Numbered from the stretch's first letter, positions 7,162 through 45,537 are shown. The stretch is DNA of 64,000 nt from Candidatus Bathyarchaeota archaeon (GCA_963807605.1 CAWECG010000001.1:480001-544000), one strand, 5' to 3'. The notes: a model not told the origin generated them from the sequence alone. Numbers and translations are program-made.

Positions 7162-7206
7162 GTAAATTGGTGCGGGGAGTGGGATTCGCGCACCAGTTTA
7201 CCAGTA
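7162..7206 (+). repeat. Cassette junction: right TIR (7162-7174) + 14-bp duplication (7175-7188) + left TIR (7189-7206)
   Basis: GTAAATTGGTGCG-GGGAGTGGGATTCG-CGCACCAGTTTACCAGTA, identical to 7838-7882. Confidence 0.92.
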
Positions 7207-10644: not shown

Positions 10645-10781
10645 TGGTGCGGGGAGTGGGATTCGAACCCACGAAGGCCTACGCCACAGGGTATCCTAGG
10701 TATATCTTGATACCCCCTAAGCTTGACACATCGCGTCATCCGCGATGCCCTGCCCCTTAGGCCAGACTCGGGTATCCCCGC
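10645..10781 (-). tRNA. tRNA-Leu(UAG) with two introns (~26 nt in the anticodon stem 5' strand; 23 nt at 37/38)
   Basis: Acceptor stem GCGGGGA/TCCCCGC-ACCA, T-arm GTGGG TTCGAAT CCCAC, long variable arm; spliced anticodon arm CAGGG CT TAG GA CCCTG; BHB fold for the 37/38 intron. Confidence 0.9.
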
Positions 10782-31481: not shown

Positions 31482-31868
31482 CGCGCGCTTAGTAAGGCTT
31501 GTTAAGGCTTGTCGAAGCTTACCAACATGCTTCTCTAGCATTCACCAGAACTGTATACAAATACAGCACATAAGCCTAGTAAGCTTCAGAAGGCTTTGGT
31601 AAGCTTATGATAAGGCTTGTTTGATACGCTTTTGTAGCTTCAGTATGCTAATGTGTACCACTGAAGTATACACTTTGAGACACTTGAACACTGTATCCTT
31701 AGGCATTGAAGACACACTAATCATCATCTGCAAGCACTATCTCAGGCTCAAGTATGTGTACATATGTACGCCTAGCGACCATGACCATAGGATAGAGATG
31801 AACCATAGTAGAATGTACTATGTACTAAGTACCTCGTTGCCGGCCAGAAAGTACAGCACGCGCGCGCG
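31482..31868. repeat. Non-coding block with ~10-bp phased AAG(G)CTT repeats, bounded by (GC)n motifs
   Basis: GCTT at 31487, 31497, 31507, 31517, 31529, 31583, 31593, 31603, 31615, 31628, 31637. Confidence 0.65.
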
Positions 31869-31883
31869 TAAAAAGATGCACGA

Positions 31884-34610
31884 GTGACGGAGTGTAGGAT
31901 GGCCATGTCTAGCCATGAATCACTCTTGGCTCAGTTGCAACGAGCCATACCGAAAAGGCCGTTTGTTCCCACGGTTCTTGAGGTTGCGGGCGCCGCAATT
32001 TGCCCGCGCAGTGCGCTTCTTAAATTGATCTATGGGGCTTCTGGTGAAAGTGATGCAAGGTTTGCTATCGGGACTGTAACGCACTCCGTGCTCGCTGAGC
32101 TTGGGCGCGTTGAGGCTACCATTGTAGATGAAACGGATCCCGCCTTGCCTGTCGATGTTGTTGCTCAGCAGGTCTATCAGCAATGGTTGGAGGCCGCAGA
32201 GGCCAAGATCGCGGACTCCTGGCGACTCTTCGCAGATGCTCGTATAAGCGTGCGGGAGGGCAAGAACGCTGTTCTTGAGAGGCTCAACGGTTTCTCACGT
32301 CACCTAGCCGAAGAGATCCTCGCAGGATATCGTAGGCCGGACAGAATCGTTACTGGTCATCACATTACGAATCTCGATCTACCGCTTCAAGGAATCCCTG
32401 ATGAATATAGAGTGTACAGCAATCCGTTGCATATTGAGATTCGCGAATTCAAGAGCTATGGAGGCTCTGCAGTCAGTGAGACGAATAAGTTGCAAGCTTG
32501 TGGATATCAGCTTCTGTTGGAACAGATCTATCCTGATGCTGATTTTACAATTAGAGTGCTTTCCACAGACGACATTGTCAATGTCCGAATGACTGACAGC
32601 AGACGTAACAAGCTTCATCAAGGTATTGCTGCTTTGCAGGAGATCTACGAGACCGCTCGAGGATCTGCACGACCGATTCCTCAACTTTGCGAAGTCTGTT
32701 CAGTCAATAACGCCTGCAAATATTACTTCAATGATAATCTGCCAAAGCATATCAGGAGGTACCTGTGGCGGCTACGGATGGAGACCTTGGAAGACAAAGG
32801 ACAAGATCAAGAATGGAGGTGGAGGAGCAAGATTCTCCCTCTAAACGTGAGAGTCGAGTTAGGATACTCTGATGGCGGTTACAGCATATCTGAGAAACAA
32901 CCACGCAGCGTCCGCCTCTCGAAGGTTGAACCCGTCAACAACTTCCTACCTGGAGATACAGTAATCGTTAGTGGCGGCGACCCGCTGGCGACACCAAACT
33001 TCACAGGCGAAGTCTCAGATTTGGAGGAGAAGTTCATAACAATCACACCATATGGCGATCTGCCTCTAGGTCTACCCGATGAAGGATTGACAATAGACCA
33101 TTATGATGTCGATCTAACACGCCGTCAGCTCAGATCCATAGACATAGTCCATCGGTCAACCGGTCGAGCTGGTGAACTTGTAAGGCGAATCCTAGGGATT
33201 GAGAGCCCAAGAAGCGCAACGACATCGGGGGTTATTGGTTTTCTTGGAGATCTCAATCAAGAACAACAACAGGCTGTGAGATTATCCATGAATGCCCCGG
33301 ATTTCGCGGTAGTCCTTGGGCCTCCAGGAACAGGTAAGACAGCTGTGATAGTAGAAATACTAGCGCAGCTTGCAAGAGAAGGAAAACGAGCTCTGGCCGT
33401 TTCGGTTACCAACACAGCGGTCGATAATATTGTTGAGAGGCTCCTCGATCAAGGACATAAGTTCGGTATTAGATTCGGAAACTGGTACAAGATCAGAGAG
33501 CGTGCACTTCAAGTTGCTCTGATAAACATAGTCACGAATGAGGAAGATCGTGCACTCGCAGCCGTTGAAAAGATGGGCACTGCAGCGGCAGTCCTGACCA
33601 CCTGCAGTAGCGCTTCGCTGGATCTTGTTAAAGCAGGGCGATTTGACGTAGTTCTATTCGAGGAGTCCAGTCAGATCAGAATGCAAGACGCTTTTGCAGC
33701 ACTTGTCCAAGGTGAAAAGGTAATCATAATAGGTGATGACAAACAGCTTTCCCCTGTCTCCCGACTTCACAAACAAGTGAGCAGCCTTCTCGAGATAGCT
33801 TTAGAGACATTGGAAAGGCATAATCTCAGTCAAGAGCTAGTAACTCAACTTAAGGTTCAATATAGGATGCAGAAACAGATTTGCGAACTTATAAATCGCA
33901 AATTCTATGGGGACACACTCCTATCATCGCCCACCATTGAAAAAAGACCCTCGCTCCCAACGCCAACTCAACTCACTGGCCTGCTGCAACTGGACAATGC
34001 TCTAGATCCAGATATTGCCGTCGCAGTAATCAATGTCGAGGGAATAGAGGAGTACCGTGGGCTTAGCGTCTTGAATCGTGCAAATCTCGAGGTTGATACA
34101 CGCCTTGTCAATTCTCTCAGGTCAGCTGGATTGACTTCGAGTCAGATAGGTTTGATTACCCCCTACAAGGAACAACAGCGACTACTCTCAGCGAATCTTG
34201 CTGATGTAGTCGATATTGGAACTGTTGACAGTTTCCAAGGCCAGGAAAGAGCTGTTGTGATTCTTGATCTTGTGAGGGCTAACCCTGAAAGGAATGTTGG
34301 ATTCACACTTGATCCTAATAGGCTGAACGTCGCTCTAAGTCGCGTGCGTGAGAAACTTATCATTGTAACCAATCTGCCGACCTTTCAGGGTCACGAACAA
34401 TTTGACCAGGTGATGGAGATAATCAGGTCACTGCCAGGCACATGCATGGAAGGAATAACAGCCAGGCAAATTGGAATACAACTACCAGAGTACCGAAGAA
34501 GAATCGAGATGCAAGTCACACCCAGAATGGTAGATGTCGTGAATGAACCAGAAGAGTTGCCTCCAACAGCACCCATTTCCCCAGCAGGAAACTACATCGA
34601 TGTCTACTAA
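31884..34610 (+). CDS. Dna2-like protein: Cas4/RecB-type Fe-S nuclease fused to Upf1-like SF1 helicase
   Basis: N-terminal CPR + CEVC..C iron staple, GIPD..EFKS..Q...Y; GPPGTGKT, GDDKQL, QYRM, TPY, TVDSFQG, RLNVALSR. Confidence 0.88.
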   Translation: MTECRMAMSSHESLLAQLQRAIPKRPFVPTVLEVAGAAICPRSALLKLIYGASGESDARFAIGTVTHSVLAELGRVEATIVDETDPALPVDVVAQQVYQQWLEAAEAKIADSWRLFADARISVREGKNAVLERLNGFSRHLAEEILAGYRRPDRIVTGHHITNLDLPLQGIPDEYRVYSNPLHIEIREFKSYGGSAVSETNKLQACGYQLLLEQIYPDADFTIRVLSTDDIVNVRMTDSRRNKLHQGIAALQEIYETARGSARPIPQLCEVCSVNNACKYYFNDNLPKHIRRYLWRLRMETLEDKGQDQEWRWRSKILPLNVRVELGYSDGGYSISEKQPRSVRLSKVEPVNNFLPGDTVIVSGGDPLATPNFTGEVSDLEEKFITITPYGDLPLGLPDEGLTIDHYDVDLTRRQLRSIDIVHRSTGRAGELVRRILGIESPRSATTSGVIGFLGDLNQEQQQAVRLSMNAPDFAVVLGPPGTGKTAVIVEILAQLAREGKRALAVSVTNTAVDNIVERLLDQGHKFGIRFGNWYKIRERALQVALINIVTNEEDRALAAVEKMGTAAAVLTTCSSASLDLVKAGRFDVVLFEESSQIRMQDAFAALVQGEKVIIIGDDKQLSPVSRLHKQVSSLLEIALETLERHNLSQELVTQLKVQYRMQKQICELINRKFYGDTLLSSPTIEKRPSLPTPTQLTGLLQLDNALDPDIAVAVINVEGIEEYRGLSVLNRANLEVDTRLVNSLRSAGLTSSQIGLITPYKEQQRLLSANLADVVDIGTVDSFQGQERAVVILDLVRANPERNVGFTLDPNRLNVALSRVREKLIIVTNLPTFQGHEQFDQVMEIIRSLPGTCMEGITARQIGIQLPEYRRRIEMQVTPRMVDVVNEPEELPPTAPISPAGNYIDVY

Positions 34611-35883
34611 CAGCGCAAAACCTGATTTCAAATTCATCCATCTTGCTGATACACATTTGGGGCTTAATTGGCCCGCGATCGGAAGACACGAAAAGATCCA
34701 GATTCCTGTCTACGGAAAAGCCTTCGCAACGATAGTGGATGCTGCAATAGAGCAGCATGTTGACTTTGTCGTCCACGCGGGAGACCTCGTCGACCGACCT
34801 CGCCCCCCAACAACTGCTTGGAACAGACTCCTCCAAGAACTTCCAAGACTAAAAGAAGCTGAAATTCCCTTTATCATAACGGTTGGATCGCACGATAAAC
34901 CAGAATCGTACTTTGATAGAGCAGGCGGAGACGTCCTTCATCTGCTTGATTCAAGACTGGGTCTGGTGAGAAGGGTTGACACGGATCAGGATCCATTTGT
35001 AAACATCAACACGAAGGGCGGCAAGAAGGTCACAGTCTACGGTCTAGGTGATCATGGTCGAGAACAGGTGGAACACTTACAACAGCTAAGCAAGCACATG
35101 AATGAAGAAAACGATTTTAGCGTTCTTCTCATGCACGGATCAGTATCTTCAATATCGCCAGTAATCGGCCCCATTATCGAGACTGAGACAATTAGCCAAC
35201 TTCTATCCAAGAGATATGTAGACTATGTTGCACTAGGACACAATCACAAGAGATGGGAGCACAAAGACCTGCATATCTATAATCCAGGTTCTCCCGAGTA
35301 CACGAGTTTTGCCGATGCTCCGACAATAACATACGTGATAGATGGAACAACCCTGAAAGAAGATAGCCGAGAGCCAGCCGAACATGGCTACTACCTTGTA
35401 GAGGTTACAGGAGAAATTGTCAAAGCACAATTCAATACGCTGCCAACTAGAGATGTAAAGAATATCCAAGTGAGATTCAACAGGGCTTCACCTTCTCAAG
35501 TGATTGAAGGATCCAAAAAGGCAATCTCCCAGAATATGTCCGATTCAAGTATTATACGCCCTATCCTAAGAGGTACACTACATCCTTCCGCGTCCAGAAG
35601 TGAGATCGACATTCGCGAGATTCTAGCACTCAGGGAGAAAATACTATTCCTCGATTACCCACTAATCGATCTTGACGATGCCCCGGTTAAGATTCAGGCC
35701 GCGGAAGGATCCATTCAGCGGCTTTTCAATCAATATTTAGAATCTAAGCTAGGACAAAATGCTAAAGAAATCTCGGATATCGCGGTGAAGCTTCTAGAAC
35801 TCTACGCCCATAAGAGCAGGACAACGAATCAAGAAGCACTGAGCCTTATTGATGGGTGGCATCCAAATGATAAGAAGGCTTGA
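34600..35883 (+). CDS. Mre11/SbcD-family metallophosphoesterase nuclease
   Basis: HLADTHLG, HAGDLVD, GSHD, MHG, YVALGHNH, YNPGSPE; overlaps the upstream stop. Confidence 0.9.
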   Translation: MSTNSAKPDFKFIHLADTHLGLNWPAIGRHEKIQIPVYGKAFATIVDAAIEQHVDFVVHAGDLVDRPRPPTTAWNRLLQELPRLKEAEIPFIITVGSHDKPESYFDRAGGDVLHLLDSRLGLVRRVDTDQDPFVNINTKGGKKVTVYGLGDHGREQVEHLQQLSKHMNEENDFSVLLMHGSVSSISPVIGPIIETETISQLLSKRYVDYVALGHNHKRWEHKDLHIYNPGSPEYTSFADAPTITYVIDGTTLKEDSREPAEHGYYLVEVTGEIVKAQFNTLPTRDVKNIQVRFNRASPSQVIEGSKKAISQNMSDSSIIRPILRGTLHPSASRSEIDIREILALREKILFLDYPLIDLDDAPVKIQAAEGSIQRLFNQYLESKLGQNAKEISDIAVKLLELYAHKSRTTNQEALSLIDGWHPNDKKA

Positions 35884-37969
35884 GCTGCGCAACTTCGCTA
35901 CACATCAAGATACGGAGATAGAGTTTGGAGGCGGAAAGAACGTCATCATTGGTGCGACAGGCTCAGGCAAGACAAATCTTCTGCAGGCATTGGACTTTGC
36001 CTTCATGGGTGAGGTGCCAGGAGCCAGCTTAGCAGAACTGGTTGCAGATAATTCTGATACAGCAGAAGTGATACTTGATTATGTCGAACCAAGAACAGGC
36101 CAGAACTATAGAATACACCGAATCTTGACTCGCGAAGCGGACGGAAAACTCAGCCATGAGTGCTCGCTGACAAATATCGATACTAACGAAACAGTCAAGA
36201 AACCGATACCTGTTCAGACGATGCTGGAAACACTTGGAGTCGTACCATCCGTATTTAGACATGTTATCCATGTCGCACAAGGAAGCTTCTCTGAGCTACT
36301 CGAAGAGACTCAAGAACGCAAGAATACTATGGATAGACTCTTCGAGATATCACAGCTTGAGATAGCTTATCAAGAACTGGGCCACCAAGGCGGCCCTATA
36401 AACCAGATAGATTTAAGAAAACACGGCAATCTCCAGAAGAAAAGCGGACTTGAAGCAATTGCCTCCACACTAGACAATGAGAGAACACTCCTTGGAAGAC
36501 TACTCAAGGAACGAAACGAAAAACAGTCAAATCTGCACGAAATCACGAAGGAACACGATAGACTCGAACAGACATCCAAAAAGAACTTGGAAACACTATC
36601 AGCACTTCAGCATCTCGAACAAAAAATTAGATTTGCAGGCGCCATCTTTGCAAGTAGCTTGGAACAAGAAAAAAGACTGACCTCAAAACTGCGTCAATTA
36701 CTCGCGGAGGAGATTTGCAACACAATAGAGAAGCAGACATCAACCGAAACCATGGCCTATCTTGGAACTGTCAAAGCAAATCTCAACAAACTACAAGCGG
36801 AAGTCAATTCTCTTAACGAAACCCATAGGCGGATTGTTGAACAGGTCGCCTCCAATCTATCACAAACTAATCTCACCTTAGAAGAGAAGACAAATGCCTC
36901 TAACCAGATAACTGTAATTCAGACATATCTGGAGGGTAAAGGCGAACAGCCGCAAATCGAATGTGACAAATGTGGCAGCCTACTCACCAAGAAACAATGG
37001 GAGAGGCACATCAAGGACAAACAGAAGGAATTGGATAGCCTCAAGAAGAAGATCACTGAACTCCGCGAGAAAAATGAGACAGACAAGAGCCTTGCTGACA
37101 ATTGCCTGAAGAAGCTGGAGGAAACTGACTCCAACGTTAGAAACCTTACGAATGTAGCTCTTTTGTTGGAACAACTTATCACACCACGTAAAGAACTCGA
37201 GAAAGCCTCAGTTTCTCAGACGCAACTAGAGTTAGACAGAGCCAAACTTGTTAATGAATTGAGGATCATGTTGCAAGCCGAACCCACAGCAGCCGATCAA
37301 GAGATCATGGATCAAGCCCTTACGCTTCGGCACAGGATTGAGACATTAACCAGACAAGTTTCCGACTTAACTAACGACTTGCAACGGTATGATGAGAATC
37401 ATCTGAAACCTCAAGAGAAGCGTGTCGCAGACGCACAGGAAGCAGTGGTTCAACTTAGGAAACTCGAACCTGAGATCAAACTAGATGAACAAAGAATATC
37501 ATTGCTGCAGATGATAAGAGCCGCTTTGAGAGAGATCCAACCTGCCGTACGAAGGAACTTCGTCTCAAGGATTACTCAAAGTGCGAATGATTACCTTGCA
37601 CGGCTTTATGGTGGTTCTGAGATACGGAACTTTGAACTTATGGATGACTATGAATTCTTTGTAACGAGGGCAGGATACAGGCGACACGCCAACAGGCTAA
37701 GCGGAGGTCAACAAGTCCTTGCAAGCATGGCATTCCTCCTAGCTCTGAGCGAAGTACTGAGCCAGCTAGATTTCCTCATTCTTGACGAACCAACAACACA
37801 CCTTGACACAAACAGAAGAATAGAGCTTGTAACAGTTCTCGAGAACCTGCGGCGCGTTCCCCAGCTCATAATAGTCGATCATCACCCAGAACTATTTGAG
37901 GCAGCGGACACGCGTTTTCGAATCTCACTTACCCCAGAGGGGCATAGTCAACTAGATCAGCTTAACTAG
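35867..37969 (+). CDS. Rad50/SbcC-family SMC ATPase
   Basis: LELRNF, GATGSGKT, Q-loop AQG, zinc hook CDKC, LSGGQ, LILDEPT, H-loop. Confidence 0.92.
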   Translation: MIRRLELRNFATHQDTEIEFGGGKNVIIGATGSGKTNLLQALDFAFMGEVPGASLAELVADNSDTAEVILDYVEPRTGQNYRIHRILTREADGKLSHECSLTNIDTNETVKKPIPVQTMLETLGVVPSVFRHVIHVAQGSFSELLEETQERKNTMDRLFEISQLEIAYQELGHQGGPINQIDLRKHGNLQKKSGLEAIASTLDNERTLLGRLLKERNEKQSNLHEITKEHDRLEQTSKKNLETLSALQHLEQKIRFAGAIFASSLEQEKRLTSKLRQLLAEEICNTIEKQTSTETMAYLGTVKANLNKLQAEVNSLNETHRRIVEQVASNLSQTNLTLEEKTNASNQITVIQTYLEGKGEQPQIECDKCGSLLTKKQWERHIKDKQKELDSLKKKITELREKNETDKSLADNCLKKLEETDSNVRNLTNVALLLEQLITPRKELEKASVSQTQLELDRAKLVNELRIMLQAEPTAADQEIMDQALTLRHRIETLTRQVSDLTNDLQRYDENHLKPQEKRVADAQEAVVQLRKLEPEIKLDEQRISLLQMIRAALREIQPAVRRNFVSRITQSANDYLARLYGGSEIRNFELMDDYEFFVTRAGYRRHANRLSGGQQVLASMAFLLALSEVLSQLDFLILDEPTTHLDTNRRIELVTVLENLRRVPQLIIVDHHPELFEAADTRFRISLTPEGHSQLDQLN

Positions 37970-38000: not shown

Positions 38001-38023
38001 TGGTGCGGGGAGTGGGATTTGAA
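38001..38023 (-). repeat. tRNA-Leu 3'-end copy (att-like remnant)
   Basis: TGGTGCGGGGAGTGGGATTTGAA, 22/23 identical to 10645-10667. Confidence 0.8.
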
Positions 38024-45421: not shown

Positions 45422-45537
45422 TCACAACCCCCTGCCTGGTCGGAGATCCAGTGGTCGTGCGCGCGCGCGTCCGAAGATCAATGCCCACCAATTCAGAATA
45501 TTCCTCTCTTGAGCCCGTCGTCGGTCGTCGTTTTTGG

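Follow-up and report, generated by a model that had tools for sequence, protein, structure and literature searches.

A Dna2-like nuclease-helicase encoded in one operon with Mre11 and Rad50: a rare, apparently mobile module of Bathyarchaeia with a predicted role in DNA-end processing

We analyzed a 64,000-nucleotide stretch of DNA (Candidatus Bathyarchaeota archaeon, GCA_963807605.1 CAWECG010000001.1:480001-544000; the window) from the genome of an uncultured soil Bathyarchaeia archaeon (2.65 Mb in 5 contigs, 94% complete; G000), and within it three overlapping, co-directional genes on the + strand at 31884-37969 that encode a Dna2-like nuclease-helicase (gene 1), an Mre11-family nuclease (gene 2), and a Rad50-family ABC ATPase (gene 3), here called the triad. 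The genome has an archaeal SSU rRNA (1494 bits), and its assignment to Bathyarchaeia follows the public names of close homologues. The open reading frames (ORFs) span 31884-34610, 34543-35883, and 35849-37969, opening at GTG 31884, ATG 34543, and TTG 35849, respectively. The true starts are probably slightly downstream: at ATG 31899, which is the start in the public gene call, and at ATG 34600 and ATG 35867, both backed by the gene calls of homologues. From these starts the products have 903 (31899..34610), 427 (34600..35883), and 700 residues (35867..37969), and the genes overlap by 11 nt (gene 1/gene 2) and 17 nt (mre11/rad50), so that a preliminary description of this DNA, made from its sequence, which presented the three overlapping genes as coupled, stands, translational coupling included. 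A TATA-like box read from the sequence (TAAAAAG, 31869..31875, + strand) lies ~27 nt upstream of ATG 31899; this position relative to the ATG matches the archaeal TATA-to-start spacing, and the box would yield a leaderless transcript. A scan for bacterial-type promoters and terminators gave nothing above chance.

In Pfam searches, the product of gene 1 joins a PDDEXK_1/Cas4 (Cas_Cas4) nuclease at residues 37-279 to AAA_11/AAA_12 domains of the Upf1-like superfamily 1B (SF1B) at residues 457-830. Four cysteines with the spacing C-x228-C-x2-C-x5-C (C35, C264, C267, and C273) and the catalytic residues D168, E183, K185, Q199, and Y203, all in the numbering of the 903-residue protein, are encoded at 32001..32717 (+ strand). 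An early cysteine followed by CxxCx5C is the iron-staple pattern of AddB, Cas4, and Dna2. Across an alignment of 44 full-length homologues, C264, C267, and C273 are invariant and C35 occurs in 95%; the five catalytic residues are conserved, and all SF1B motifs are kept (Walker A GPPGTGKT together with GDxxQLxP-, QYRM-, and NVALSR-like motifs). With both domains, the four cysteines, and the motifs in place, the iron-sulfur (Fe-S) Cas4/RecB nuclease fused to a Upf1-like SF1 helicase that had been read from this gene is borne out.

Searches of PDB sequences match the protein to IGHMBP2 (3.7e-43, 151 bits) and to mouse Dna2 (6.4e-40, 140 bits). For an AlphaFold2 (AF2) model of the full-length protein (pLDDT 80), Foldseek ranks mouse Dna2 (5EAN) first (E 1e-42, TMq 0.71, 971 columns), and a model of residues 1-450 (pLDDT 79) also matches 5EAN best (E 1.3e-13, TMq 0.62), with Cas4/ACE1 (4e-5) and AddB (2e-3) far below. 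Because both models match Dna2 best, the protein is predicted to have the whole Dna2 layout: an Fe-S nuclease, a beta-barrel, a stalk, and two SF1B motor domains. We find no support for orthology with eukaryotic Dna2, because the Dna2 domain (PF08696) has no match in the window protein in Pfam searches, a profile of the N-terminal module run against 1.8 billion representatives returned 69 matches with no eukaryotic Dna2 among them, and the motor is about equally near to IGHMBP2; judged by sequence, the relationship appears to be one of design. The parallel with eukaryotic Dna2 drawn in the preliminary description thus holds end to end for architecture and is not supported for sequence orthology. 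By analogy with its family, the enzyme is predicted to bind an Fe-S cluster and to translocate 5'->3' with single-stranded DNA threaded through the nuclease tunnel. A complex prediction for Mre11 and the helicase half of the gene 1 protein scored 0.00, which speaks neither for nor against binding.

Gene 2 matches Metallophos in Pfam (1.8e-16), its best named matches are archaeal Mre11 models (Mre11_Sulfo in NCBIfam at 110 bits, under the 500-bit cut-off), and its best PDB match is Mre11 of Pyrococcus furiosus (1ii7, 1.8e-16). Of the metal-binding motifs, I (DTH), II (GD), IV (H), and V (GHNH) are preserved. All triad members have GSHD as motif III, in place of the GNHD/E of ordinary Mre11, and a sister clade described below has GTHD, so that a change of Asn to Ser or Thr is common to the triad and sister clades; since the changed residue is a metal ligand, the triad Mre11 is likely, and not certain, to be active. 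Together with these matches, its adjacency to and co-inheritance with the Rad50 gene support the family assignment made before.

Gene 3 matches SMC_N (2.8e-23, Pfam), the Rad50 model PRK03918 (159 bits, under the 700-bit cut-off, NCBIfam), and, in a PDB sequence search, the P. furiosus Rad50 head (1e-32). Walker A (GATGSGKT), Q-loop, signature (LSGGQ), Walker B (LDEP), and H-loop are intact around a short coiled coil, and the Walker B glutamate is kept in all 59 of the homologues compared. At the apex of the coiled coil is a zinc hook of the CxxC type (CDKC, 36962..36973, + strand; residues 372-375 of the 706-residue ORF), and C-[DE]-[KR]-C occurs at residues 365-373 in 59/59 homologues. The compact Rad50 with a zinc hook is as first described, at 700 residues and with CDKC; its compactness is not special to the triad, because the canonical-cluster Rad50 reading frame in the same family has 643-703 residues.

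The best explanation of these features is that the triad is one self-contained DNA-end-processing machine. By analogy with the protein families involved, we consider it highly probable that Rad50-Mre11 binds and opens DNA ends, after which the Dna2-type enzyme is loaded onto the 5' strand and digests it as it moves 5'->3'. In this scheme, zinc hooks would hold two Rad50 subunits together, and this dimer would, with Mre11, recognize and open ends that may be free, hairpin, or blocked. The 5' single strand so exposed would be fed by the Dna2-shaped enzyme into its Fe-S nuclease, and the enzyme's SF1B motor, running 5'->3', would let the strand be degraded over long distances. Enzyme activities, polarity, a physical complex, the target DNA, and the biological role are all things that we infer here. 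The same three activities are predicted, with the same Dna2 chain layout, as for eukaryotic Mre11-Rad50(-Nbs1/Xrs2) and Dna2 (5EAN; PMC4716839); unlike eukaryotic resection, the triad comes without Nbs1, Sgs1/BLM, or RPA-binding parts, and its genes form a single operon of an accessory kind.

The survey of conservation proposed in the preliminary description shows the triad to be colinear and co-inherited well beyond the window. The same gene order and orientation are found in ~15 independent Bathyarchaeia loci of 35-97% identity, which is every locus long enough to show it (beyond the window, L018, L020, L022, L044, L045, L046, L047, L048, L054, L055, L060, L067, L068, and L069). Identity to the window across these loci is 50-79% for the nuclease-helicase, 38-78% for Mre11, and 35-69% for Rad50. 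The nuclease-helicase and Rad50 families are narrow, their scores collapsing past the triad members, and the Mre11 family has an extra tier at 36-42% identity, which is the sister clade. Reading frames are broken in L046, L060, and L061, all from MFD bins; decay is possible, and because these are metagenome-assembled genomes in which sequencing errors may break frames, we do not count them as pseudogenes. Of 301 Bathyarchaeia species genomes, 8, from five families, have a nuclease-helicase orthologue, compared with 234 that have NurA. With one genome per species across 185,579 species we find nine loci, seven under Bathyarchaeia or Bathyarchaeota names and two under bacterial names; one of the latter, on contig DATKOK010000098.1, has the coordinates of a match in G239, a genome in Bathyarchaeia according to GTDB, and we suspect that the other is mis-assigned too.

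Sequence relationships among the loci are incongruent with taxonomy. Between G107 and G215, both of family f7, Mre11 is 58% and Rad50 48% identical, whereas between G107 and G000 (f7 versus f1) the values are 69% and 62%. A NurA2/HerA2 control gives 76%/87% identity within a genus and 50%/58% across families f1 and f7. Because the triad identities run counter to the families, unlike those of NurA2/HerA2, the comparison points to horizontal movement of the triad.

A quick maximum-likelihood tree of Mre11, with SH-aLRT (Shimodaira-Hasegawa-like approximate likelihood ratio test) supports, bears on where the triad came from. All triad Mre11s, including the most divergent (genome G071), form one clade (support 86), which is sister to the clade at 36-42% identity with a joint support of 99 and a long stem. 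The Mre11 of the canonical cluster in G022 (same family as G000), a second Mre11 of G000 (on contig C3, see below), and a Lokiarchaeal Mre11 (P0351, 31% identical) all fall elsewhere, the last outside both the triad and sister clades. In the two sister-clade members examined (L064:4623-12434 and L065:892-8694), the operon runs from a 460-residue protein through HerA/DUF87 (766 residues), a Csa3-like CARF protein (236 residues), and Mre11 (with GTHD) to a Rad50 that aligns end to end with the triad Rad50, hook included, at 30% identity. Most simply, these relationships are explained by an exchange in place within an operon of the HerA/Mre11/Rad50 type, in which a Dna2-like fusion took the place of HerA and its neighbors, or the reverse: because the triad Mre11-Rad50 pair is sister to the pair in the HerA and CARF operon, the Dna2-like gene would occupy the slot of a HerA-type gene. 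The 460-residue protein was considered as a NurA and rejected, showing no similarity in BLASTP or PDB phmmer searches. A CARF sensor within a HerA-Mre11-Rad50 operon is unusual. Both sister operons are flanked by MmeI/Eco57I-type IIG enzymes, and L065 also has Cdc6, a DEAD helicase, and another Metallophos protein nearby. Like the canonical herA-mre11-rad50-nurA operon (PMC3326311, PMC2288612), the triad has an archaeal-type Mre11-Rad50 pair coupled in an operon to helicase and nuclease activity; it differs in that one SF1B nuclease-helicase of monomer type stands in for the hexameric HerA translocase and NurA, in motif III of its Mre11 (GSHD), and in its rare and patchy distribution.

HerA and NurA are not encoded within the triad locus (ORFs and Pfam). 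Elsewhere in G000, a nurA-herA pair lies on contig C4 (C4:589992-592466, with NurA at C4:591354-592466 and herA adjoining), apart from any mre11-rad50. The Pfam NurA model finds no match in G000, which is a problem of sensitivity: the divergent orthologue was found through the NurA of G087, a genome of the same genus, to which it is 76% identical, and orthologues of the C4 pair in G087, G022, and G107 are 50-87% identical. The pair on C4 rules out that the genome lacks NurA and HerA. A second Mre11 (391 residues) and Rad50 (837 residues) are encoded on contig C3 (C3:364973-368651; L015:6974-10652), leaning toward SbcCD and beside an ExoIII-like gene; this pair has no close orthologue in 150 other genomes of the class (≤36% identity) and may also have been acquired. 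The absence of HerA/NurA set out in the preliminary description is therefore right for the locus and wrong for the genome. As for the separate canonical herA-mre11-rad50-nurA locus for which it proposed to look, nurA-herA and the second Mre11-Rad50 pair are on different contigs, and the joint nurA-herA-mre11-rad50 cluster that is present in G022 was not found in G000. The triad was also considered as a general replacement of the canonical cluster, which is ruled out by G071, where the triad stands alongside a canonical herA-mre11-rad50 cluster, and by G000 and G291, which have the triad and a second Mre11; it could be such a replacement in G087 and G107.

The neighbors of the triad vary among loci. 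A complete type I restriction-modification (R-M) system comes directly after rad50 in L055 and L069, with tyrosine-integrase genes at the edges (two in L069). The hsdM gene of L055 begins within ~15 nt of rad50, and in L069 (3851-18907) rad50 and hsdM are called as a single 1028-residue protein (P0182), followed by hsdS and hsdR; this fusion may be genuine or reflect a frameshift artefact. A type IIG Eco57I/MmeI-like enzyme and a UvrD/PD-(D/E)XK pair are encoded in L044, and L020 has a D5-type primase, an N6/N4 methyltransferase, and many small ORFs. In G071 (L018:7627-16679, CAZQWG010000003.1), we find a tight block of prokaryotic Argonaute (pAgo), nuclease-helicase, mre11, rad50, and HNH genes, separated by 14, 3, -17, and 0 nt. 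The pAgo has 786 residues and matches the PADLOC pAgo model at 1.7e-44 over its PIWI half; it has no PDB sequence match, the call resting on PADLOC hidden Markov models (HMMs) alone. The HNH protein has 187 residues. As a whole, the block is a candidate for an Argonaute system that brings along an end-processing machine. We saw no cas genes adjoining any triad. An MBL (metallo-beta-lactamase)/beta-CASP (RNase J-like) neighbor in L044, L055, and L060 was considered as a further component and set aside, its G000 homologue lying ~280 kb from the triad.

Downstream of the triad in the window, the 3' end of tRNA-Leu is repeated over 23 nt (38001..38023, - strand, one mismatch), 31 nt past the rad50 stop, so that the tRNA-end remnant noted there at first is real, and it has the look of an attachment-site (att) remnant. 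The source appears to be an intron-containing tRNA-Leu of 137 nt (10645-10781, - strand), whose last 23 nt are found again at 7168, 7844, and 38001; ARAGORN and Rfam called no tRNA in the window, and this gene was read by eye. A repeat-bounded cassette array begins beyond 38.3 kb. In G087, an intact tRNA-Leu lies 2.2 kb past the triad and is followed by the gene that adjoins tRNA-Leu in G000. Given the remnant in G000 and the nearby intact tRNA-Leu in G087, the triad borders a tRNA-Leu integration and cassette hot spot in both genomes, and the region is rearranged between them.

Relatives of the nuclease-helicase also occur where Mre11-Rad50 is absent. A profile search with the N-terminal module finds split relatives in which a nuclease-plus-barrel protein of 425-452 residues is followed by an SF1B helicase of ~414 residues (L049:3485-7077, L050:134-5012, where the contig ends within the second gene, and L052:7276-12722). 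They lie in restriction-rich islands beside N6 or N4 methyltransferases, type I R-M genes, or HD proteins, in one case with an integrase. L061 has a full-length solo nuclease-helicase followed by an Eco57I/MmeI-type methylase, and all four triad-less relatives (L049, L050, L052, and L061) stand beside methyltransferases or R-M genes. The split pairs look like an uncatalogued restriction-like system of two or three genes, comparable to Bad of Geobacillus stearothermophilus (PMC7430649), a sporadic prokaryotic protein with Dna2 architecture and an iron-staple nuclease. The Bad gene neighbors a type III-like methyltransferase in all Geobacillus genomes its authors examined, who proposed a new kind of restriction enzyme (PMC7430649), and this methyltransferase link is mirrored by the split and solo relatives; in the published description, by which we compare them, no Mre11-Rad50 is reported with Bad.

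As a whole, the triad matches no catalogued system in PADLOC. Such a match and a lack of conservation elsewhere were the two grounds that the preliminary description had named for giving up its reading, and neither applies; full-text literature searches found no publication describing this operon. An Mre11-Rad50 end-processing operon is a kind already known; for this version of it we found no published description. Gene by gene, gene 1 matches only the helicase parts of MkoA and other PADLOC models, gene 2 matches none, and gene 3 matches only generic ATPase heads (mad3, LmuB, and AriA). The earlier comparison with Lamassu fares less well, coming down to such generic head similarity (LmuB, 5.9e-25, 86 bits, with no match to LmuA or LmuC). 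LmuB of Lamassu (LmuABC/DdmABC; PMC10586767) is a short Rad50-like ATPase of ~650-700 residues that often has a zinc hook and is believed to detect DNA ends or hairpins; the triad differs in having a true Mre11 as partner and in its Walker B LDEP, kept in every homologue where LmuB usually has E changed to Q (PMC10586767), and archaeal Rad50 is the better match. Because LmuA and LmuC are absent and the Walker B glutamate is kept, the triad is, to judge by its sequence, not Lamassu.

Bacteria offer a further point of comparison. In the addB-addA-sbcD-sbcC cluster of Bacillus subtilis, an Fe-S RecB-type helicase-nuclease is encoded with bacterial Mre11-Rad50 homologues; AddAB is a two-subunit, Chi-regulated enzyme of SF1A (UvrD-like) and also degrades foreign linear DNA. 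The triad enzyme, in contrast, is a single-chain SF1B protein, for which AddB ranks well below Dna2 in the fold search (2e-3 versus 1.3e-13). The pAgo of G071 recalls two pAgo-helper systems. Production of guides by CbAgo depends on RecBCD and on breaks, including those made by SbcCD (bioRxiv 10.1101/2020.03.01.971358), and long-A pAgo is paired with ACE1 (PMC12094033), which is the next-best fold match of the gene 1 nuclease domain after Dna2. In contrast to these systems, the link between triad and pAgo, a tight operon, is seen in one locus only.

For the biological role, we consider it about evenly balanced that the triad is a mobile end-degradation or resection module that destroys or processes linear or cleaved foreign DNA, like RecBCD/AddAB, with repair of the cell's own breaks as a possible side function. 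RecBCD and AddAB take part in bacterial immunity, degrading foreign DNA; to our knowledge, archaea have neither. In Bathyarchaeia, the triad is a rare, horizontally moving accessory module and not part of the standard repair kit, and because it is rare, mobile, and often beside restriction systems, a role on foreign or broken DNA is more likely than standard repair. An action against foreign DNA is favored by this rarity and mobility, by redundancy with other Mre11-Rad50 pairs, and by the company of R-M systems, Argonaute, and integrases. More tentatively, the triad may be a portable immune effector, a stand-alone end-destroyer on integrative islands that teams with type I or IIG restriction enzymes or with Argonaute: Rad50-Mre11 would sense cut or linear invader DNA and the Dna2-like motor would shred it, possibly yielding guides or spacers. 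Between the two readings in the preliminary description, an archaeal Dna2-Mre11-Rad50 resection module and a system against mobile genetic elements, the molecular part of the former is upheld and the role leans toward the latter, without being settled. Several observations weigh against a role on foreign DNA. Each of the triad proteins has homologues among genuine repair proteins; in L022, L045, L046, and L054, and on the upstream side in the window, the neighbors are only metabolic or unknown; no discriminator of self from non-self is evident in the window; and the triad Mre11 is the only Mre11 found in G087 and G107 (90-95% complete), which fits a repair role. The pAgo gene is present in only one of the three loci of the G071 subclade, being absent from L067 and L068, with no copy detected in G000 either, and was for this reason rejected as an integral fourth gene. 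A search of 2.9 million viral contigs found no relative, by which viral carriage of the triad was likewise rejected. The survey of neighbors, in which R-M models are the most frequent PADLOC matches among 130 neighbor ORFs from 12 loci, with some HamB, BrxH, and PglX-like matches, is a descriptive count, and all sequences compared are metagenome bins of uncultured Bathyarchaeia, in which binning errors are possible.

Several of these points are those that a role in repair would lead one to expect. The triad could be an accessory or alternative end-resection module for homologous recombination at the cell's own breaks, its location in islands being incidental: all three proteins belong to repair families with their catalytic motifs kept, HerA is retained at the corresponding place in the sister-clade operon, G000 is without the canonical cluster that G022 has, the triad supplies the only Mre11 detected in G087 and G107, and several loci have no defense neighbors. 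Set against this are the patchy occurrence (8/301 versus 234/301 for NurA), the presence, in addition to the triad, of a canonical cluster in G071 and of further Mre11-Rad50 pairs in G000 and G291, the incongruence with taxonomy, and the repeated abutting of R-M systems, pAgo, and integrases, and we hold this explanation to be unlikely, while giving it real weight. It is improbable that the triad is a helper of guide- or spacer-based immunity, making short single-stranded pieces for Argonaute or for CRISPR adaptation in the way that RecBCD and AddAB serve bacterial pAgos. In favor of this are the tight pAgo-to-HNH block of G071, the dependence of CbAgo guides on RecBCD and breaks, and the Csa3-like CARF protein of the sister operon; Csa3a activates the nurA/herA/mre11/rad50 promoters in Sulfolobus (PMC5587795). 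That pAgo accompanies a single locus, is missing from the two others of its subclade and from G000, and was called from one HMM library with no PDB sequence match argues against this helper role, as does the lack of cas genes adjoining any triad. Phage-encoded Mre11-Rad50 homologues serve recombination-dependent replication or end maintenance, and the triad might do the same for an integrated plasmid or virus, in keeping with the integrases that flank it in L069 and L055, the D5-type primase and many small ORFs beside it in L020, and the tRNA-Leu att-like contexts in the window and G087. This service to a mobile element is the least probable of the explanations considered, since the neighbors vary by locus, so that no single element carries the triad, several loci lie among ordinary metabolic genes, and no relative was found on the viral contigs.

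The textbook division assigns archaeal break processing to HerA-NurA with Mre11-Rad50, and the pairing of Mre11-Rad50 with Dna2 to eukaryotes. Contrary to it, the operon described here hard-wires a Dna2-shaped enzyme to Mre11-Rad50 in a prokaryote, and the sister operon makes this a clear example of one helicase-nuclease arrangement giving way to a different one. The rarity, mobility, and company of the triad suggest that archaea trade end-resection machinery as an accessory, probably defensive, cassette. Two questions are raised: how DNA cleaved by archaeal restriction and Argonaute systems is then destroyed or turned into guides, and whether the coupling of Mre11-Rad50 to Dna2 is a design reached repeatedly and not one that eukaryotes invented. 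If the triad is indeed a portable immune effector, the pairing of Mre11-Rad50 with a Dna2-type enzyme in archaea would have arisen in genome conflict as well as in repair.

Further observations concern the surroundings of single loci. An Orc1/Cdc6 gene and an XPB-like helicase lie near the five-gene block of G071. In L020, a second pair of Metallophos (331 residues) and SMC-like (655 residues) proteins is encoded directly after the triad (L020:16263-19491); past it come short fragments with 72-79% identity to the C terminus of the window Rad50, apparently left over from a copy that was duplicated or recombined. In the window itself, the non-coding stretch upstream of the operon (31482-31868) contains AAGCTT-like repeats with a period of ~10 bp and (GC)n motifs, and is possibly a regulatory region or a cassette boundary; the motif CGCGCGCGCGT within it recurs at 45460.

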